IMG/VR virus record: IMGVR_UViG_3300025438_000011
Source: an uncultured virus (IMG/VR IMGVR_UViG_3300025438_000011)
Taxonomy: Duplodnaviria > Heunggongvirae > Uroviricota > Caudoviricetes
DNA: 64,000 nt
Direction: 5' to 3' (one strand)
Positions 1-8,111 of this stretch are shown in pieces. A program made the position numbers and the translations under genes. The notes under the pieces are model-generated. The model saw only the letters and a list, made by a program, of their open reading frames with translations. It was not told where the DNA came from and did not search any database. Numbering within the stretch: the first letter of the stretch is position 1; the number at the start of each line of letters is the position of its first letter.

Positions 1-1487
1 ATTTGTACATTCTCACCAATTTTGAGGTTTAGAATGTGTGGTTCGAATATAGCTGGTTTTATAGTTAATGAGTCTTCGATGAATTCACCATTCTCAAAAG
101 GTGTTCCGTATTCATATACTGGTCTGATAATTTTGTGTTCGGCTGATACCCAGTGAATTGTACCCTTCACTTTTCTATCACATTCACCAGATTTAGTATC
201 TGGATCATATGTACAGATGATTTCAATAACCTCACCATTTTCATCTTTGATAACAGATTCGGCCTTTATGATATAAGCACCCTTCAATCGAATTTCGTGT
301 CCTAATTTCAATCTGTGATACTTTCTATTAGCCTCTTCTCTGAAGTCTTCTTTTTCGATGTATAGTGTTCCGGTGAATGGTACTTCCCTCGTATTCTCAT
401 CCTCACCCGGCTTATTCTCAATACTCACATATTCAGTGTCACCTGGCCAATTACTTATAGTCACTTTGACTGGATCAAATACACCCATAACCCGGTTGGC
501 TGTCTCATTTAACTCAATTCTAAGACACTCTTCCAATAATTCGATATCTATCTCAGATTCTCTTTTAGAAACACCTACACGCTCACAGAAATCTCTTATG
601 GATCCTGGTGTGAATCCTTTCTTCCTCAAACCTTTCAACGTCAATAGTCTTGGATCATCCCATCCATCAACTTTACCACTATCGACAAGAGCATTGATTT
701 TTCTCTTACTCATAATGTTGTCTTTGATGTTCAGTCTTGAAAATTCTGTTTCTTCTGGTAGATTACCTGTTAGGTCTGAATTATTCAATATCCAGTTATA
801 AAGAGGTCTATGAACCTCAAATTCCAGAGTGCATAATGAGTCAGTGATACCTTCGAAGTAATCACATAATGGGTGAGCCATGTCATACATTGGGTAGATA
901 CACCATTCTTCACCAGTTTTGTGGTGTGGTGTCTTAACTACTCTATACAGTACAGGGTCTCTCATAATCATATTAGGACTAGCCATGTCAATCTTGGCTC
1001 TCAATACAACGGTGTTCTCATCATATCCACCTTCCTTCATCTTCTTGAACATATAAACATTCTCTTCGATTGACCGGCTTCTAGATTTAGAATTTGTGCC
1101 CGGAAGTGTTGTAGTTCCTTTCAACTTAGCCATTTCTTCTGATGTGCCATCCTCAACATAAGCAAGTCCTTTCTTGATTAGTATAAGAGCACATTTATGT
1201 ATATCACTGAAGTAATCTGATGTATATGTTACTTTACTTGGTGTGAAACCCAACCACTCAACATCTTCGATTATCGATTTGATATATTCGTTCTTTTCGG
1301 TTAGTGGGTTTGTATCATCAAACCTAAGGTTACAATCACCATCATATTTCTCAGCTAAGCCAAAATTAAGACACATTGATTTGGCATGTCCAAGATGTAA
1401 TCCTGGTGAATTATTTTCGGGCGGAAAACGAAGTACTATTTTCTCATTACTCAACTTCTTTATTATTTTCTCTTCTATAAAATTCAT
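1..1487 (-). CDS. glnS: Glutaminyl-tRNA synthetase (3' end runs off window)
   Basis: Hand translation from ATG 1487: LRFPPENNSPGLHLGHAK (HIGH motif), NLRFDDTNP, MYDMAHPLCD..EGITDSLCTLEF, MSKRK, RKVKGTIHWVSA. Absent from the ORF track because there is no stop in the window. Confidence 0.95.
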   Translation of the reverse strand, partial: MNFIEEKIIKKLSNEKIVLRFPPENNSPGLHLGHAKSMCLNFGLAEKYDGDCNLRFDDTNPLTEKNEYIKSIIEDVEWLGFTPSKVTYTSDYFSDIHKCALILIKKGLAYVEDGTSEEMAKLKGTTTLPGTNSKSRSRSIEENVYMFKKMKEGGYDENTVVLRAKIDMASPNMIMRDPVLYRVVKTPHHKTGEEWCIYPMYDMAHPLCDYFEGITDSLCTLEFEVHRPLYNWILNNSDLTGNLPEETEFSRLNIKDNIMSKRKINALVDSGKVDGWDDPRLLTLKGLRKKGFTPGSIRDFCERVGVSKRESEIDIELLEECLRIELNETANRVMGVFDPVKVTISNWPGDTEYVSIENKPGEDENTREVPFTGTLYIEKEDFREEANRKYHRLKLGHEIRLKGAYIIKAESVIKDENGEVIEIICTYDPDTKSGECDRKVKGTIHWVSAEHKIIRPVYEYGTPFENGEFIEDSLTIKPAIFEPHILNLKIGENVQ

Positions 1488-1939
1488 TTTAATATATTTA
1501 TTGATTTTTTAACAGATGTATCATCTAGTCCAATCATCGGACTTGTTAATACCAAATGGTCTTTAACTTCACTCGGTAAATCGTTCAATGACTTATCATC
1601 GTCCAGTATTATAAAGGAATTTGTCGATTTGTTTTCATACCAACACATAACCTCTTCGAATCGAGTACCATCAGTTTTCAATTTATCGATATCTGTTACG
1701 ATACCTCTTAGTTTGAAAATCTCATCCCACTCACTCAGACTATACTTAACCTTATGTGTGGTTGTTAGAACAATACAAGCATTAGTTTCACTGATTATCA
1801 GATTCAAGTTCTTAGTAGCCTTTTCGTCAAACGCACAAAAACCATCCTCTAGTAATTCAACTGGTTCCCAAGATTTGTTCTTTATCATAACACCATCAAG
1901 GTCTAATAATATTGTACTTCTATTTTTCATTTTAACCAT
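1484..1939 (-). CDS. HAD-superfamily phosphatase (Swiss-army-knife RNA-repair type)
   Basis: LLDLDGV motif I, IVLTTT motif II, IILDDD motif IV. Confidence 0.75.
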   Translation of the reverse strand: MVKMKNRSTILLDLDGVMIKNKSWEPVELLEDGFCAFDEKATKNLNLIISETNACIVLTTTHKVKYSLSEWDEIFKLRGIVTDIDKLKTDGTRFEEVMCWYENKSTNSFIILDDDKSLNDLPSEVKDHLVLTSPMIGLDDTSVKKSINILK

Positions 1940-2038
1940 TTTTAGTTCGTATATAATGATATGATTCGTACACCGATTAACTACTCATCTATTGATTACG
2001 AATCAGTGATGATACCATTACAATACATTATATTATTG

Positions 2039-2113
2039 TTCCTCTACTAGGGTTCCAACCTAGAATCTTCCGGATCAAAACCGGACGTGTTAAGCAAATT
2101 ACACCATAGAGGA
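2039..2113 (-). tRNA. tRNA-Gln(UUG)
   Basis: Acceptor TCCTCTA/TAGAGGA; anticodon arm TCCGG-TTTTGAT-CCGGA; T arm CTAGG-TTGGAAC-CCTAG; CCA not encoded. Confidence 0.85.
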
Positions 2114-2121
2114 TTATTTTG

Positions 2122-2192
2122 TTGCTCCACTTGGACTCGGACCAAGTTCATCTACTTCAAAGGTAGATATGTTACCCATATACTATAGAGCA
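2122..2192 (-). tRNA. tRNA-Gln(UUG), second copy
   Basis: Acceptor TGCTCTA/TGGAGCA; anticodon arm TCTAC-CTTTGAA-GTAGA; T arm CTTGG-TCCGAGT-CCAAG. Confidence 0.8.
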
Positions 2193-2194
2193 TT

Positions 2195-2228
2195 AAAAAA
2201 CCCGGTTAATCGTTAGATTAACCGGGTT
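2195..2228 (-). terminator. Intrinsic terminator (attenuator) upstream of the tRNA-Gln genes
   Basis: AACCCGGTTAATC-TAAC-GATTAACCGGGTT followed by a T-run on the minus strand. Confidence 0.85.
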
Positions 2229-2255
2229 CATCAATATTATTTGTTAGACAATACT

Positions 2256-2315
2256 CTACCAGTCAATCTCTCGATCGATTTGTTGCTGTTGCTGGTATTG
2301 AGTTACTATTGTCAT
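2256..2315 (-). CDS. Gln-rich attenuation leader peptide MTIVTQYQQQQQIDREIDW
   Basis: 19 codons, 6 of 7 consecutive codons are Gln; lies between an AATATATA motif and the terminator; its 3' end is complementary to the terminator 5' arm. Confidence 0.85.
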   Translation of the reverse strand: MTIVTQYQQQQQIDREIDW

Positions 2316-2329
2316 AATTTCTTCTTCTG

Positions 2330-2337
2330 TATATATT
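2330..2337 (-). promoter_or_regulatory. AATATATA putative phage promoter motif
   Basis: Same motif recurs shortly upstream of many start codons in the window. Confidence 0.5.
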
Positions 2338-2362
2338 GTTTTTTATTCTCTTTGTTTCTTTT

Positions 2363-2629
2363 TCAGTAATAAACTTCTCTCATTTTCTCATATTCATTCA
2401 ATACTTCGTCATGTTGGTACTCAGTATTGAATACAATGTGTTCAAAAAATTTATCAGTAGTTTCTTTACAGAAATCACTTTCTTCGTACTCGTATGGTAA
2501 CTTACCAAATTTTGACATCGTTTCAACAATATCGGTTTTACCTGTTATGATATCATCAACTAATTCACCAACTCGGTTATCAGCTAATCGACATCCAGTT
2601 TCCCAACCTTCTTTTTTATAACTTATCAT
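2363..2629 (-). CDS. Hypothetical protein
   Basis: ORF directly after a TACATTTG (-7) promoter element. Confidence 0.65.
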   Translation of the reverse strand: MISYKKEGWETGCRLADNRVGELVDDIITGKTDIVETMSKFGKLPYEYEESDFCKETTDKFFEHIVFNTEYQHDEVLNEYEKMREVYY

Positions 2630-2870
2630 TGTACAAATGTAAGGATAAATTATGGACTAAAACAAAATAATTATATGAATTACTTCATATTAACCCGAAC
2701 ATTCTTAGTAGTGGGTGTTTTTTGTTTCTTTTCCTCGTTCATGGATACAGTAACTTTCTTAGATAATTTAACTTTGAAATCATTTTCCCAAGGTATAAAC
2801 ATACTACCATCAGCAATTACTTCGAGTCGTATTTTACCCATCTGACCTTCTTTGAGTATATTACTTTTAT

Positions 2871-3188
2871 TTAAGTGAAGTATTGCTCTAATCCTTTCCT
2901 GTTTAAATTATTTACTAGTTCAACGAGTATATCTCCGTGACAAGACTGTTTGGGATTACACCAACACCCTAATGTTTTTCCTTTGAGTTCGTGTAGGTCT
3001 TTTAGAAGATATTGTCCCTCACCATTCACCAACCATTCTTTGTGAGAATCAATTGATTCTTTTCGTGTACTTACTCGATACTGTGCTGTTGAATTCTTCT
3101 TGTATGAGAAGGGACTTCCCCATTTTGAGGATCTATCTATCATCAGGTCGAATGATTCTTTCCGATGATGTACTCTTTTACACTTCAT
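2871..3188 (-). CDS. DUF4326-family protein
   Basis: SKWGSPF and LKGKTLGCWC.P..CHGDIL motifs. Confidence 0.8.
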   Translation of the reverse strand: MKCKRVHHRKESFDLMIDRSSKWGSPFSYKKNSTAQYRVSTRKESIDSHKEWLVNGEGQYLLKDLHELKGKTLGCWCNPKQSCHGDILVELVNNLNRKGLEQYFT

Positions 3189-3558
3189 AGTAATACTTCT
3201 CTCCTATCACTAATTTATCAATTTCACTCGGATTAAACTCTGTAAAAGTTGAGTCGATAGAATATGCACCCATCCCACATAGGTGGTTGTGTATAAAATC
3301 TTGTGAACACATTTCACCATAGTAGTCCTCTTCATCTTCTGTGAACTTATCACTACCTACTGCCAGTGGCCAGTCAAATTCATTGAAGTTAGAATCGAAA
3401 TATCTGATGTTCAGTTGTAGGGTATCTCTCGATACTGTACTTTCAATATTTTGTATTTCAATGAATTTCATCACTGTTGGAAAATGATTAGCTAACATCT
3501 TGATTAGTAATCCCATTATTCTAAATTTCGTAAATTCTATATTTTTTTCATTTTTCAT
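3178..3558 (-). CDS. Hypothetical protein
   Basis: ORF overlapping its neighbour in a minus-strand run. Confidence 0.65.
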   Translation of the reverse strand: MKNEKNIEFTKFRIMGLLIKMLANHFPTVMKFIEIQNIESTVSRDTLQLNIRYFDSNFNEFDWPLAVGSDKFTEDEEDYYGEMCSQDFIHNHLCGMGAYSIDSTFTEFNPSEIDKLVIGEKYYYEV

Positions 3559-3589
3559 TTTAATATATCTGTTAATTTCGTATCTCGTC

Positions 3590-3707
3590 TTTCTGACTTA
3601 CTACAATAAATGATAGTATGAACTACACACAAGCTAAAGACTTGTGTGTTTTACGTTCCGTCATATAAATTATTCTAATACTATCATTTAATGTAGTAAG
3701 TCAGAAA
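3590..3707. repeat. 28-bp inverted repeat enclosing a mini-element
   Basis: 3590-3617 versus 3680-3707, 1 mismatch. Confidence 0.85.
3618..3664 (-). mobile_element. 47-bp IS200/IS605-derived mini-element (PATE-like), copy 1
   Basis: ATGACGGAACGTAAAACACACAAGTCTTTAGCTTGTGTGTAGTTCAT immediately after TTTAT. Confidence 0.85.
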
Positions 3708-3758
3708 TTAGTACTACTTTCATTATAAAATTATTTCAACTAATGTACGTATAATATT

Positions 3759-4178
3759 TCAATTATCAATATGTAATACTAATAACTCAGATAGTTTCAT
3801 ATTCCGTTGGTGTTGATCTATTTTACACTGACAGAACTCACCAACTATTCCTATAATTATACTTTCTGACAAATCAATTTTGATTTTGTTCATAACATCA
3901 GTATTGTATGAGAGAAAAAATCTATTATATTTTGTGTTGAAAGTATACCAACTGTATAGGTATCCTTTTTGTATAAGGTCATGTGTATCGATTTGACATT
4001 CCATAACCCTTGATAAGTTTATTTTGGATGAATTTACCTTCAAACTGTCCCGGTACTCATCTATACTCACCCAATTTGATGATTTATACTTAATATATTC
4101 AATAGCGGGTTTAATCCCAGGAGTGAGTTTGGTTTTAGGAATATGTGTGTTGTAAAGAAAATCCATTTCTACTATCAT
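3759..4178 (-). CDS. Hypothetical protein with C-terminal RNMKLSELL tag
   Basis: ORF; shared C-terminal motif. Confidence 0.65.
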   Translation of the reverse strand: MIVEMDFLYNTHIPKTKLTPGIKPAIEYIKYKSSNWVSIDEYRDSLKVNSSKINLSRVMECQIDTHDLIQKGYLYSWYTFNTKYNRFFLSYNTDVMNKIKIDLSESIIIGIVGEFCQCKIDQHQRNMKLSELLVLHIDN

Positions 4179-4567
4179 CCTAGTAGAGAATTTAATTTGT
4201 AGTCCCTCTGTAATGGTTTCAAAACAGAATTGATAATTAACTCTCGTTCTGTTGTCATTTCTGCCAAAGTTACTGTGTGCTCACTCAATACCTTGATATA
4301 CTCTGGGTGTATGGTCAAGAACTCACTAACCGATACAGCAGGATATGGTTCATGGTTAATATCACAGAATATTTTAGAATATCCAACCATCAATGCTGTT
4401 AATTCAGCATCCTCGAAATTAAGAGCGATGTTCGGGTAAGTTATGTCTCGTGTACTACCCAAAAAAAGGAAGTGATTGAACTCATTTCGATATACATATC
4501 CCGGTTTTAGGTGATCATCTACCGCCAAGTGTTCATCTATTTGTTCTTGTGTTAAAGTACTTGCCAT
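4175..4567 (-). CDS. Hypothetical protein with C-terminal RDYKLNSLL tag
   Basis: ORF; shared C-terminal motif. Confidence 0.7.
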   Translation of the reverse strand: MASTLTQEQIDEHLAVDDHLKPGYVYRNEFNHFLFLGSTRDITYPNIALNFEDAELTALMVGYSKIFCDINHEPYPAVSVSEFLTIHPEYIKVLSEHTVTLAEMTTERELIINSVLKPLQRDYKLNSLLG

Positions 4568-4640
4568 GTGTTTGTTTATTTTGTGGATAACTATTGTGAT
4601 AAAAATTATCTTTATAAGATGATAATGTTTTTAAGATTAA

Positions 4641-4955
4641 TTAGAAGAAATCAACAATATACTGGATACATGATACTTCGAAGTTGTTATAGTTTCTAAT
4701 AAGATCCAATCTTTTAGAAGAATCTTGGATATCACATACAACATCTTCTGTTGTGATGAATAGTTTCCATCCATTATCTGTAAAGATTTCAACTGTTCGT
4801 GTGTGTCCTGATGAGTTACTATCAGTATGATAGATTAGTTTGAATTTTCTATCTTTAATAGAGAAGGTGTGACGTGCTGTGATTGTTGTAGTATAACCAT
4901 TGCTTTTTTCGTTAGTAGTTACTTTCTTCGAGATTGTTGTTAGTGTCTTAGCCAT
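4641..4955 (-). CDS. Hypothetical protein
   Basis: ORF downstream of a host-type promoter. Confidence 0.7.
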   Translation of the reverse strand: MAKTLTTISKKVTTNEKSNGYTTTITARHTFSIKDRKFKLIYHTDSNSSGHTRTVEIFTDNGWKLFITTEDVVCDIQDSSKRLDLIRNYNNFEVSCIQYIVDFF

Positions 4956-4973
4956 GTGTTTATTTGTTTTATG

Positions 4974-5005
4974 TAAATGTACGGATAACTTACCGACGGG
5001 CCAAA
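4974..5005 (-). promoter_or_regulatory. Bacteroidota-type sigma70 promoter (-33 TTTG, 20 nt, -7 TACATTTA)
   Basis: TTTGGCCCGTCGG..CGTACATTTA; near-duplicate at 5620-5651. Confidence 0.7.
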
Positions 5006-5016
5006 TTTAGGTATTA

Positions 5017-5268
5017 TTAACCACCTATTAGTTTATCAAGTGTGTGATTACGCCTATCCTTCTTAGTTTCGAAGTATTCTATAATCGTTTTTCTTAACAA
5101 CCTATTCTTAGACCGGGACAGAATATCCATCCTTTTCAGTGTTATTTTATCATAATCCGGTGGAACGCTACTAACAACATGGTCAATTCTGTATACCTCA
5201 CCAACCGAATATACCTTAGTGTTACGGACAAAGGTTTTGATTACTGTTACTTCTTCTCCAATATTCAT
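5017..5268 (-). CDS. Small hypothetical protein with C-terminal RNHTLDKLI tag
   Basis: ORF; resembles 7815, 8101 and 35725. Confidence 0.7.
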   Translation of the reverse strand: MNIGEEVTVIKTFVRNTKVYSVGEVYRIDHVVSSVPPDYDKITLKRMDILSRSKNRLLRKTIIEYFETKKDRRNHTLDKLIGG

Positions 5269-5615
5269 GTTTGTTTTTGGTGTCTTTTTGATAAGTAATC
5301 ATTTATATCTTCCATAGTGTGTAGTGGTGGTGGTGATGGTATTGCATATCTACCCAGTGGGTTGATACTCTTATATTTCATAACCAGTACTGTACTTCCT
5401 TTACGAATAAAGTGTTTTACGACTTCGTAGTGTTTATCCGTTTTGGTATCTACTATACCCTCTTCTACTACATAATCTGGTAACCAACTGTCATTGAATG
5501 TGACTTCGAGATTGCCGTTCAGAGGATTTAATGGGAAGAGTTCTTTATCTTCGTATAAATCATCTGACGAATCTCTGTAATATCCTACTTTAATTGGGTA
5601 ACTGATTCTACTCAT
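5265..5615 (-). CDS. Hypothetical protein
   Basis: ORF a few nt after a -7 element. Confidence 0.7.
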   Translation of the reverse strand: MSRISYPIKVGYYRDSSDDLYEDKELFPLNPLNGNLEVTFNDSWLPDYVVEEGIVDTKTDKHYEVVKHFIRKGSTVLVMKYKSINPLGRYAIPSPPPLHTMEDINDYLSKRHQKQT

Positions 5616-5619
5616 AGTA

Positions 5620-5651
5620 TAAATGTACGAAGAAAGTTCCGACGGGCCAAA
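5620..5651 (-). promoter_or_regulatory. Bacteroidota-type sigma70 promoter
   Basis: TTTGGCCCGTCGG..CGTACATTTA, 20-nt spacer. Confidence 0.7.
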
Positions 5652-5753
5652 TTTAAATAAATCGGTCTTTTGTTCTAGGTATTAATGAACATTCTTCGAC
5701 CGTTCTTAAATTCAACAGTTGTTTGACTGTTTAAAATTTAATTATATTTTACT

Positions 5754-6620
5754 CTAATCCCATTTATGTTTTGCTCCTTTTATCCATCCATCATTTAGGT
5801 AATTATGTAATTCTTCCTTTTTTATTGGTTTACTTTTCTTAATCTCCATATTATATACCCAACAAGTACCATATTGTGAATTTTTCTCACCTTTTTGGTG
5901 TATGGAATTTTTCTCACCTATCTTTCTTTTTGATTCTTTTGTGTGTTTTTTACCTTTCCATAGAGGAATAAGTTCTCCATTTAAAAACCTGAGATCATCT
6001 TTACAAACATAATGTATATTACCATCTATATCTTTGGTTGTGACCATACCATCCGATATATATCGTAATTCACCATTTAAATATCTAATATCATCAACTT
6101 TAACTGATGAAATATTACCATCTACATCTTTAACAGGTACCATTCCTTTGGTTGTTCCGACTAATTCACCACTTAAGTATCTATCATCGTCAATATTGAC
6201 CTTTAAATATTCACCAGCACTATTTTTGACGGTGGTCATACCTTTTGTGATTCCGACCAATTTACCAGATAAATATCTTTTATCACTTTTATGTACTCTC
6301 ATACAATCACCAGACTCGTCCCTGACCATTATTGTATCGACTGTATTAAAAGTTCCACCTATTATTATATTATATGTATCGTCCCTTTTTATGAATTCTC
6401 TATTAACTAATTTAGATTCCTTCTCTAACATATCACTTTTATTATCAAAATTATATAGAATTATTTTATCAAAATTTTCTTTCCCAAATTCATCAATTGC
6501 CTTTTTAATATTAGTACCACTACCCATATAACTATCGTTTATATTTTTGGTTATGTGACACCCAATGTATATTTTATCATCAACTCTATTGGTTATTTGA
6601 TATACGATATAATTTTTCAT
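5754..6620 (-). CDS. Free-standing GIY-YIG homing endonuclease (Seg-like)
   Basis: YIVYQITN..KIYIG..YMGSG..E..YN; four internal D.RYLSGELVG repeats; NUMOD3-like WKGKKHTKESKRKIG. Confidence 0.85.
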   Translation of the reverse strand: MKNYIVYQITNRVDDKIYIGCHITKNINDSYMGSGTNIKKAIDEFGKENFDKIILYNFDNKSDMLEKESKLVNREFIKRDDTYNIIIGGTFNTVDTIMVRDESGDCMRVHKSDKRYLSGKLVGITKGMTTVKNSAGEYLKVNIDDDRYLSGELVGTTKGMVPVKDVDGNISSVKVDDIRYLNGELRYISDGMVTTKDIDGNIHYVCKDDLRFLNGELIPLWKGKKHTKESKRKIGEKNSIHQKGEKNSQYGTCWVYNMEIKKSKPIKKEELHNYLNDGWIKGAKHKWD

Positions 6621-6716
6621 AATTAATATACTATTTTTTAGTATATATAAAAGTCCGATATTACTTTTTATCGGAGTAAATGTAGAGTCTCTAATATTTG
6701 AACCATTGTACTGTTG

Positions 6717-6792
6717 TCGGGGTGGCCGGATTCGAACCCACCTGATATCTCACGCGACAAGTGAGTAGACACGCCAAGCATCTCCCAGGACC
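6717..6792 (-). pseudogene. Chimeric tRNA: 5' tRNA-Asp(GUC) joined to a tRNA-Pro-like 3' end
   Basis: Intact anticodon arm CTCAC-TTGTCGC-GTGAG; acceptor GGTCCTG does not pair with CACCCCG; T stem broken across GGTTCGAATCC. Confidence 0.7.
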
Positions 6793-6801
6793 ATATTTTT
6801 G

Positions 6802-6875
6802 TGCGGGGTGTGGGATTCGAACCCACGACCACTCCAGTCCAAGTGGAGTAAACATCCTGACCGTTATCACCCTAC
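6802..6875 (-). tRNA. tRNA-Pro(UGG)
   Basis: Anticodon arm CTCCA-CTTGGAC-TGGAG; T arm GTGGG-TTCGAAT-CCCAC; acceptor GTAGGGT/ACCCCGC with one A-C mismatch. Confidence 0.75.
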
Positions 6876-6881
6876 ATTTTT

Positions 6882-6935
6882 GTCTAGTGGATGGGATTCG
6901 AACCCATCAGTTAAGAATTGCCATTCATCACTAGA
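6882..6935 (-). ncRNA. 54-nt tRNA-like RNA lacking an anticodon arm
   Basis: Perfect acceptor TCTAGTG/CACTAGA, T arm GATGGG-TTCGAAT-CCCATC, only one small hairpin GAAT-GGCA-ATTC between them. Confidence 0.6.
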
Positions 6936-6945
6936 TTTTACGCAT

Positions 6946-6981
6946 AAAAAAACTCAGTTAATCTAATTGACTAACTGAGTT
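6946..6981 (-). terminator. Intrinsic terminator (attenuator) upstream of the Pro/Asp tRNA cluster
   Basis: AACTCAGTTAGTC-AATTA-GATTAACTGAGTT plus T-run. Confidence 0.85.
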
Positions 6982-7008
6982 GTTATATGGGTTTGTATTA
7001 TTTAATGA

Positions 7009-7122
7009 TTATCTATAATCATCTGTTTCAAACTTTTTAACGCAGTTAGTCCTAATAGGATCGGGATCCTGATCGGTAACTCTCGGAAGAGGTTGAACTG
7101 ATATGTTAAAAAGTGTTTTCAT
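7009..7122 (-). CDS. Pro/Asp-rich leader peptide MKTLFNISVQPLPRVTDQDPDPIRTNCVKKFETDDYR
   Basis: 37 codons after AATATATA (7130-7137); contains GACTAACTGCGTT, complementary to the terminator 5' arm. Confidence 0.75.
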   Translation of the reverse strand: MKTLFNISVQPLPRVTDQDPDPIRTNCVKKFETDDYR

Positions 7123-7168
7123 CTGTTTCTATATATTAGGTTTTGTTTGTCCCTTTTCTTTTACACTA

Positions 7169-7199
7169 CAAAGGTAGTAAAGTTTACTTAACCACCAAA
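7169..7199 (-). promoter_or_regulatory. Consensus Bacteroidota sigma70 promoter
   Basis: TTTG-N19-TACCTTTG upstream of the leader and tRNA cluster. Confidence 0.7.
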
Positions 7200-7249
7200 A
7201 TTATTTGATAATATTCTTCGGTCTTTGATTTCTTATCAATACTTTCATT

Positions 7250-7519
7250 TTAATATTTAATATATTCTAATAATTTCAACTGTAGTTTTTCATCGGGGCT
7301 ATCTGTATCACTTTCTTTTAGGCTCATATATAGCTCAGCAATATTTTCGTGATCCAGTAGTATATCAAGATTAACTGACATATCAACCATTATGTAATCG
7401 GTAAATTCTTCCATAAAAAGCTGGATATTTACTAACGTTCCGATTTTGAAATCGGCTTCGGTTAATTTAGTCAATTCTTCGTTGGTTTTATATTTACCAA
7501 AATTATTTAAGTGTTCCAT
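7250..7519 (-). CDS. Hypothetical protein (possible capsid-internal)
   Basis: AATATATA upstream; N-terminus MEHLNNFGKYKTNE. Confidence 0.65.
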   Translation of the reverse strand: MEHLNNFGKYKTNEELTKLTEADFKIGTLVNIQLFMEEFTDYIMVDMSVNLDILLDHENIAELYMSLKESDTDSPDEKLQLKLLEYIKY

Positions 7520-7549
7520 GAATTATATATTAAATACAAAAATCATTAA

Positions 7550-7843
7550 TCATTTTAATATTTCTTCAAGTTTCTTGTTACGTAACCAGGGTTTGTGTAG
7601 TTTGATATAATAAGGGTGTGTGTAGTTATGGTCGGCTCCTAGTCGAGTATCTGTTACCAATAGTGGATCATTCATAGCATTCGTATTATACCCGGTTACT
7701 GTAAAAATTCCTTCTCTGTAATGTGATCTTTTATCATTCTCATCCATATAGAATTTAGACCCAATCGGATAGCATTCTTTTGTATATTCCAGCTTATCTA
7801 TTTTTGGTAGGGAATCAAATATATTTTTGTCGAATATTTTCAT
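7550..7843 (-). CDS. Hypothetical protein (YPIG..V.GY..HP family), RNKKLEEIL tag
   Basis: Similar to 8435 and 8670. Confidence 0.75.
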   Translation of the reverse strand: MKIFDKNIFDSLPKIDKLEYTKECYPIGSKFYMDENDKRSHYREGIFTVTGYNTNAMNDPLLVTDTRLGADHNYTHPYYIKLHKPWLRNKKLEEILK

Positions 7844-8111
7844 TTAAATTTAGGATTATTTTCAGTTTTTCATAACGAATCTCTTTTATACTTTTGAAAT
7901 ATTGTGGAATACAGAAATGTCTTACTCTAACATTCGTTAGAAACCATTGGTCTGAATCATTATCACCGAATAAGCTTACTTGTTTGTTATACTCATCAGG
8001 AGGGAAGGCCCTAACATCACTGATTATATAATTTTTACCTTTGGTGAATGAAATACCATATTGTTTTAAATCTTTAATACAGTGTAGATGATTGCCTATT
8101 TCATACTTCAT
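7815..8111 (-). CDS. Hypothetical protein, tandem paralogue of 8101-8373
   Basis: Shared L.CIKDL, F.KG.NY, QWFL.NV, IPQYFK..KEIR..KLK. Confidence 0.75.
   Translation of the reverse strand: MKYEIGNHLHCIKDLKQYGISFTKGKNYIISDVRAFPPDEYNKQVSLFGDNDSDQWFLTNVRVRHFCIPQYFKSIKEIRYEKLKIILNLNENIRQKYI

Follow-up and report, generated by a model that had tools for sequence, protein, structure and literature searches.

A glutamine-codon leader peptide that probably gates tRNA-Gln genes and glnS by transcription attenuation in an uncultured Caudoviricetes virus

Background

In the leader-peptide attenuators of biosynthetic operons (trpL, hisL, pheL, leuL, thrL, and ilv), the regulatory codons immediately precede region 1 of the leader RNA, and a ribosome that terminates at the end of the leader peptide masks region 2; the thrL and ilv leaders are multivalent. 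Attenuation also governs a synthetase operon: pheM is the leader peptide of pheST, in which tandem cognate codons and an intrinsic terminator provide tRNA-Phe-dependent attenuation. This work describes a locus of similar design in a 64,000-nucleotide (nt) stretch of DNA from an uncultured virus of the Caudoviricetes (IMG/VR record IMGVR_UViG_3300025438_000011), referred to here as the window. A short open reading frame (ORF) containing a run of glutamine codons, followed by an intrinsic terminator, stands in front of two tRNA-Gln(UUG) genes, a HAD gene, and glnS. The element is very probably a transcription attenuator of the ribosome-mediated, leader-peptide kind, which senses how much charged tRNA-Gln is available and gates these four genes.

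The window locus has in common with the biosynthetic leader attenuators the 1:2/2:3/3:4 hairpins and the placement of the stop codon, and a further leader in the window, rich in Asp, Pro, and Gln codons, is multivalent in the manner of thrL and ilv. Its targets, however, are tRNA and synthetase genes rather than biosynthetic enzymes. As in Escherichia coli pheST, a cognate-codon leader and an intrinsic terminator control the synthetase for that amino acid, but here the amino acid is glutamine, the operon is phage encoded, tRNA genes come first, a HAD gene is included, and there is no sequence relation. The T-box of Firmicutes likewise senses tRNA charging and turns on aminoacyl-tRNA synthetase genes by antitermination; it senses uncharged tRNA directly and without translation, whereas the sensor in the window would be a translated ORF.

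The E. coli pheST operon is cited as being under attenuation control (PMC4082710), and leader peptides have been predicted before hisS paralogues in bacilli (PMC2965389). A survey of huge phages reports tRNAs and as many as 15 synthetases in a genome, and its main text uses neither the word "leader" nor the word "terminator" (PMC7162821). Our literature search, which covered full text but not subscription-only papers, returned no leader peptide gating tRNA genes or phage synthetases and no glutamine leader, in agreement with a preliminary description of this locus (made from the sequence alone), which held that no leader peptide controlling phage tRNA genes had been described. To our knowledge, no glutamine leader peptide has been described at all.

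Results

Anatomy of the glutamine leader and its operon

Coordinates refer to the window, and the attenuator and its operon lie entirely on the minus strand. Each element that the preliminary description had placed at 2039..2337 or downstream of it, from the upstream motif to glnS, is present on that strand:

2337-2330, minus: AATATATA motif, 14 nt 5' of the leader ATG; may be a phage promoter or an element of translation start
2315-2256, minus: leader ORF, 19 codons plus TAG, peptide MTIVTQYQQQQQIDREIDW (ATG 2315-2313, TAG 2258-2256)
2280-2300, minus: regulatory codon run, codons 6-12 (CAA TAC CAG CAA CAG CAA CAA)
2278-2273, minus: region 1, the sequestor S (TCGATC), immediately downstream of the Gln run; its partner is GATTGA in the antiterminator strand
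2269-2259, minus: region 2, the antiterminator strand A (AGATTGACTGG), with its 3' end at the stop codon; starts 10 nt past the last Gln codon
2262-2247, minus: 3' strand of the outer protector helix (CTGGTAGAGTATTGTC), with partners at 2313-2308, 2303-2300, and 2297-2292
2229-2195, minus: intrinsic terminator (regions 3 and 4), 14-bp stem, loop TAAC, T6, -21.0 kcal/mol
2192-2121, minus: tRNA-Gln(UUG), copy 1 (ARAGORN; Rfam 49.6 bits)
2113-2038, minus: tRNA-Gln(UUG), copy 2 (ARAGORN; Rfam 57.8 bits)
1939-1484, minus: HAD gene, 151 amino acids (aa), of the "Swiss Army Knife RNA repair" type (PF18143 HAD_SAK_2, E 1.9e-23)
1487-3, minus: glnS (glutamine--tRNA ligase), open at the window end (TIGR00440, 592.6 bits against a cutoff of 425.8; PF00749 and PF03950)

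The leader contains six Gln codons, at position 6 and at positions 8 to 12, the latter five being consecutive. Its terminator consists of a 5' arm (GAACCCGGTTAATC, 2229-2216), a 3' arm (2211-2198), and a T6 tract (2200-2195), and only 2 nt separate the end of the terminator from the first tRNA-Gln. With two tRNA-Gln genes and glnS behind the terminator, the set of regulated genes is the one originally claimed, and the stop of the HAD gene overlaps the ATG of glnS. DNA contigs from four sequencing runs carry the same leader as the window, save for a T>G difference at 2231, outside the key helices. A search of sequencing runs for this DNA listed no RNA run. A simple terminator scan of the window did not list this terminator, which the scan probably missed through the extension of the stem into the T tract.

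Mutually exclusive pairings in the window leader

The minimum-free-energy (MFE) fold of the 151-nt leader (-44.4 kcal/mol) consists of a protector hairpin and the terminator, with a z score of -8.06 and none of 200 shuffles as good. This protector is the one that had been proposed: GACAAT, ACTC, and TACCAG pair with CTGGTA, GAGT, and ATTGTC, and the MFE folds also contain, as the inner hairpin of the protector, the pairing between S and A. The A strand can alternatively pair with CCGGTTAATCT (2225-2215) in the terminator 5' arm, forming 11 bp with 2 G-U pairs (duplex energy, -13.2 kcal/mol). This antiterminator, initially read from the sequence, was reproduced when nascent RNA was folded with a ribosome placed at the last Gln codon, the next 9 nt masked, and the terminator 3' arm not yet made; the resulting structure has an energy of -15.7 kcal/mol. 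The 20 nt that follow the Gln run surpassed 99.76% of 2,972 random 20-nt stretches from the same DNA in pairing with the terminator 5' arm. In computed folds, the window leader therefore holds mutually exclusive 1:2, 2:3, and 3:4 pairings.

Proposed mechanism

These pairings are consistent with a switch that would have three states. In a leader without a ribosome, the S:A hairpin and the outer protector would form, leaving the terminator to fold and stop transcription. With ample Gln-tRNA, the ribosome would reach the stop codon and cover A, and the terminator would again form. With scarce Gln-tRNA, the ribosome would stall in the Gln run with its footprint covering S and ending just before A; the freed A strand would then pair with the nascent terminator 5' arm, and the polymerase would read into the tRNA-Gln genes, the HAD gene, and glnS. 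The leader carried on read-through transcripts would be removed from the first tRNA by RNase P, and the products of the operon would raise the level of Gln-tRNA, closing a negative feedback loop. We infer translation of the leader, ribosome stalling, kinetic antitermination, trimming by RNase P, and the physiological trigger, for which the preliminary description gave starvation or host tRNA cleavage as examples. On this model, the phage probably makes its own tRNA-Gln and GlnRS only when ribosomes read Gln codons slowly.

Recurrence of the leader in related loci

Relatives were found through GlnRS searches, which yielded 12 viral loci and then 77, on contigs of up to 519 kb (one of these, of 519 kb, is complete, with terminal repeats). 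Individual loci are designated by L numbers where they must be told apart. Eighteen tRNA clusters in the related viral loci start with tRNA-Gln and have enough upstream DNA; a short Gln-run ORF and a terminator precede 12 of them. Loci L020 and L295 were not judged, as the contig end is too near. The design was found in four further loci, namely L013 (read upstream of glnS), L227 (from a pattern scan), and L294 and L296 (metagenome contigs). The search for Gln leaders in related phages that the preliminary description had suggested thus gave leader and complementarity in 16 distinct loci including the window, each with 4 to 7 Gln codons and with the run in frame with the ATG. The L293 leader is identical to that of the window, and the leader peptides of relatives include MTTFTQQYQQQQIDREIDW, MRTTTQYQQQQQINPTD, MKNLTLQQQQQMIKLD, MKTLTSQQQQLFKPD, MVNITINIQQQQQQQTLNKGSGIALS, MTYFYDIFQQQQQQSERSDRLAVPVRVT, and MNTLFTQQQQLNLRKLKLD.

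Runs of this kind are concentrated where the model places them. In 1.66 Mb of related loci, counting both strands, there are 20 (CAR)>=4 runs, 12 of which lie within 250 nt upstream of a tRNA-Gln gene. An exact terminator pattern had no match in the viral contigs; a degenerate leader pattern matched at least 119 stretches there and was judged too unspecific, only 3 of the matches listed having tRNA-Gln downstream and 1 of these (L227) being new.

This recurrence bears on a simpler explanation of the window locus, in which an ordinary terminator insulates an upstream unit, the Gln ORF arose by chance or is untranslated, and the tRNAs are expressed from another promoter or by constitutive leak-through. 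Intrinsic terminators commonly separate transcription units, and an 88-aa ORF (2629-2363, minus), preceded by what we read as a promoter-like box, ends 47 nt before the leader. Yet the ORF, the Gln run, and the complementarity between A and the terminator recur behind tRNA arrays (L016, L017, L021, and L294) and behind protein genes elsewhere, and the spacing is fixed. Moreover, of the 12 loci with a tRNA behind the terminator, 8 have only 2 nt between the T tract and that tRNA, so there is no room for a promoter between the two. We consider the insulator explanation highly unlikely.

Geometry and covariation across leaders

The anatomy, conservation, covariation, and geometry of the attenuator can be read from the leader sequences themselves. 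Since MAFFT could not align the hairpin arms, per-sequence folds were used in place of a covariance model; for the geometry, the size of the ribosome footprint was assumed from general knowledge. In 12 of 12 leaders, the unconstrained MFE fold comprises the protector and the terminator, and the stalled-ribosome nascent fold comprises the helix between A and the terminator 5' arm (-11.4 to -18.1 kcal/mol). When the whole leader was searched for the strand that pairs best with the terminator 5' arm, this strand began at +6 to +12 in all 12, and in 11 of the 12 the A stretch ranks in the best 2% of ~3,000 random 20-nt stretches per locus. Among 13 tabulated leaders, A invariably starts 9 to 13 nt after the last Gln codon and ends between -15 and +7 nt relative to the stop-codon end, abutting or overlapping the stop codon in most loci. 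The trp/his-type 1:2/2:3/3:4 logic originally proposed for the window accordingly recurs in the relatives with conserved spacing.

Pairing between A and the terminator is kept through five unrelated core sequences. Most loci have the core AGATTGA:TCAATCT, which is replaced by GGTTCCGG:CCTGGAAC in L024, AGATCGT:ACGATCT in L025, AACTCAAGCTT:AAGCCTGGGTT in L028, and AGGTTGAATG:CATTCGACCT in L013. Of 14 leaders, 12 have an S:A hairpin, whose sequence likewise differs between them.

Observations that weigh against attenuation

Several observations count against the attenuator as described, the first group concerning its distribution. Six of the 18 clusters that start with tRNA-Gln lack a Gln-run leader. 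Both tRNA-Gln genes of L023 and the second tRNA-Gln cluster of L028 are without one, as are L026 and L043, whose tRNA-Gln genes lie in or beside mixed arrays; cluster 3414 of L071 has a mixed Pro/Gln/Asp leader instead of a Gln-run leader. In L015, glnS stands alone, with a divergent gene upstream. The window leader, for its part, may also receive transcripts from the upstream 88-aa ORF.

A second group concerns the helices. The A stretch of L025 is not significant when compared with random stretches (0.11), and the duplex reached p<=0.05 in only 7 of 12 leaders when the arm was taken without loop bases and compared with dinucleotide shuffles of the whole leader. Individually, the S:A hairpins are weak (-3.6 to -6.9 kcal/mol) and do not stand out from shuffles (fractions, 0.00 to 0.39); L018 and L022 have none. 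A MAFFT/RNAalifold consensus of the leaders recovered only 3 pairs, because the hairpin arms do not align. Finally, the terminator is always stabler than the antiterminator duplex (-15.9 to -29.3 versus -7.6 to -15.9 kcal/mol); read-through must therefore be kinetic, as in the trp operon.

Comparison with known RNA regulators

Because tRNA and synthetase genes are classical targets of T-boxes and of synthetase autoregulation, a switch that operates without a ribosome has to be considered. In such a switch, uncharged tRNA-Gln would bind the CAA run and a UGG in the A strand in a T-box-like manner, or GlnRS or another protein would bind the leader, as in thrS or as Bacillus TRAP does. A UGG does occur within the A strand in many loci, but its GG is accounted for by pairing with CC at the base of the terminator arm. 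In addition, the run is in frame with the ATG in 16 of 16 loci and the stop codon lies within or near A, features that an RNA-only sensor would not need.

Searches against known families pointed the same way. A cmscan of positions 1 to 8000 at E<=1 returned only tRNA, a weak plastid 3' untranslated region hairpin, and a weak tmRNA match, and thus no curated non-tRNA family that would account for the leader. We rejected a T-box leader (RF00230) and the glutamine riboswitches (glnA RNA and the Downstream-peptide motif) on this basis, none of them being matched at that threshold; the Rfam leader families for Trp, His, Thr, and Leu/Phe were likewise not matched. Taken with the geometry, a ribosome-free switch appears very unlikely.

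Link to glnS and absence outside the phage group

Ribosome-mediated attenuation in this group of phages seems to extend to the synthetase. In L016-L018, L021, and L022, glnS starts 17 to 18 nt after the last tRNA-Gln, and in the window and L014 the HAD gene lies between tRNA-Gln and glnS. The GlnRS of L013 is the closest in the viral collection (71% identity), and neither ARAGORN nor Rfam finds a tRNA in this locus. A Gln leader (MSQTQTHIQQLQQQFDTKG) and terminator (320-511) nevertheless stand there, 16 nt before HAD-glnS, as if L013 had lost its tRNAs yet kept the attenuator. Since the attenuator directly precedes HAD-glnS without a tRNA, the switch is linked not only to the tRNAs but also to the synthetase, and this variant shows it to be modular.

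The nearest bacterial GlnRS proteins are 47 to 55% identical, and many are Bacteroidota named. In 80 bacterial glnS loci, the leader is absent and no tRNA-Gln lies upstream of any glnS; the closest same-strand (CAR)>=4 run upstream of glnS is 945 nt away. The leader is also absent in 76 more distant metagenome glnS loci, where there is neither a tRNA-Gln nor a run on the glnS strand. With the leader in 0 of 156 bacterial or distant glnS loci, we rejected a bacterial origin for it.

Two other upstream regions of glnS are recorded here for completeness. The sequence MQQAQQRPECRSAI upstream of the L057 glnS was rejected as a leader, being located in GC-rich DNA beside an opposite-strand tRNA-Ser with no evident terminator. 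Upstream of the stand-alone glnS of L015 (4300-4600) are several copies of a ~60-nt repeat (..ctcacctctcgtttgagtgc.tcttccacc..).

Further codon-matched leaders

The window contains a second attenuator-like unit, ~4.6 kb from the first and separated from it by protein genes:

7137-7130, minus: AATATATA motif before the second leader
7122-7009, minus: second leader ORF, 37 codons, MKTLFNISVQPLPRVTDQDPDPIRTNCVKKFETDDYR, rich in Asp, Pro, and Gln codons (..QPLP..TDQDPDP..)
6981-6946, minus: terminator of the second attenuator, 5' arm CAGTTAGTC
6935-6883, minus: tRNA-like element of ~53 nt that lacks an anticodon arm but has D- and T-arms (T-arm loop, TTCGAAT) and an acceptor stem of 7 bp
6801-6875, minus: tRNA-Pro(UGG), behind the second attenuator (ARAGORN)

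A strand of this leader, GACTAACTG (7051-7043), is complementary to the 5' arm of its terminator. The tRNA-like element (-17.3 kcal/mol; z score, -2.9) occupies the site of tRNA-Asp in relatives. In 8 related loci, homologues of the second leader precede tRNA-Asp/Pro arrays; L019 differs in both the pairing strand and the terminator arm, which have changed together, and in L071 a leader with the core PQPQDQD precedes a Gln-Pro-Asp array. In L016, L017, L021, and L294, a Pro/Asp/Gln leader is followed by a Gln-only leader before three tRNA-Gln genes and glnS.

The complete 519-kb relative has two further units of leader and terminator (L170, 660-900 and 3090-3330). One is a KKKKK leader (MLVVVAIVIKKKKKPWSQGTIAY) before four tRNA-Lys genes, and the other (MRTNTSHNHFNKSTFSNKSRMGVLCALER, with mostly Thr, Asn, Ser, His, Phe, and Lys codons) precedes a Phe-Phe-Ser-Ser-Asn-Asn-His-Thr tRNA array. 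In L030 and L043, candidate Lys leaders lack a T-tract terminator and are unconfirmed.

A separate observation concerns L028 at ~6950-7130 (the minus strand of L173), where a candidate attenuator precedes tRNA-Trp. Its ORF, MRNINNIFNCFWFPYYPFKTNGPGKVGMLVS, has a single Trp codon, and a strand, GGTCCAGGC, is complementary to the terminator 5' arm; tRNA-Trp alone follows in the portion of the record examined.

The codon content of these leaders helps to judge whether the peptide itself might be the functional product, either as a Gln-rich micropeptide or as a nascent chain that arrests the ribosome regardless of Gln-tRNA, with the hairpins serving mRNA stability or tRNA 5' processing. In favor of this reading, the ORF is conserved, is probably translated, and shares the AATATATA-N-ATG context with long ORFs; the N termini are also loosely similar (MxT/N...). 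Outside the Gln run, however, the peptides vary in sequence and in length (15 to 28 aa), and the parallel leaders swap the run to Asp/Pro or Lys, matching the tRNAs downstream, which fits codon sensing. A function of the peptide as such is extremely unlikely.

Promoter and start signals

The AATATATA motif occurs 23 times in the window, and in 11 of these cases, as counted from the list of sites, an ATG follows 4 to 7 nt later; 8 of the 11 ATGs open ORFs of 52 to 1,606 aa. Sites of (T)AATATATA include 11575, 19811, 31728, 49103, 10966, and 7531, and TAATATATA is enriched in the window, with 14 sites for an expectation of 5.6. The motif is also found before the leaders of L014, L019, L028, L013, L294, and L296. 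It is a candidate phage promoter that would give near-leaderless mRNAs or, alternatively, a candidate start-site element.

Boxes of the form TAnnTTTG, which we take to be the Bacteroidota -7 promoter consensus, lie ~35 to 45 nt upstream of many leader ATGs (L014, L017, L019, L022, L071, and L296). The window has TACATTTG before the 88-aa ORF (2641-2634, minus) and TACCTTTG ~40 nt upstream of the 7137-7130 motif. Together with the mostly Bacteroidota-named nearest GlnRS proteins, these boxes are hints of a Bacteroidota host, the preliminary description having named Flavobacterium or Bacteroides, and of the use of the host polymerase.

Other features around the locus

Between the second tRNA-Gln and the HAD gene is one more tRNA-like sequence, and one annotated protein gene lies farther upstream of the leader:

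2032-1951, minus: degenerate third tRNA-like stretch (Rfam 22 bits against a cutoff of 29; fold z score, -1.4)
2871-3188, minus: DUF4326 protein (E 1.1e-20), two genes upstream of the Gln leader, with a weak match to the DUF488-N3 subclade

By alignment, the place of the 2032-1951 stretch is taken in relatives by a third or fourth tRNA-Gln, whose anticodon is often CUG. A megablast search of window positions 1 to 6000 against phage GenBank sequences gave no match.

Discussion

What is new in this element is its targets (tRNA genes and a synthetase), its amino acid (glutamine), and its owner (a phage); in the other respects that can be examined in sequence, it has the properties of a classical attenuator. 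The presence of several such units invites a broader reading, in which each phage tRNA block would stand behind its own codon-matched leader, forming a distributed tRNA-supply sensing network by which the phage replaces only what fails. The Gln module, with its GlnRS and RNA-repair HAD, would then be an inducible countermeasure to host attack on tRNA-Gln (by anticodon nucleases or by tRNA depletion in abortive infection) rather than a starvation response. We put this forward as a tentative possibility that is, on present evidence, rather doubtful.

The attenuator bears on the purpose and timing of tRNA and synthetase gene use by phages. If it operates as proposed, such genes would be switched on when decoding fails, rather than merely being expressed in keeping with codon usage. 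The leader would be a compact natural sensor of charged tRNA-Gln, with read-through predicted to rise as Gln-tRNA falls. Classical attenuation would thereby be extended to RNA products, to glutamine, and to phages, probably those of Bacteroidota hosts.

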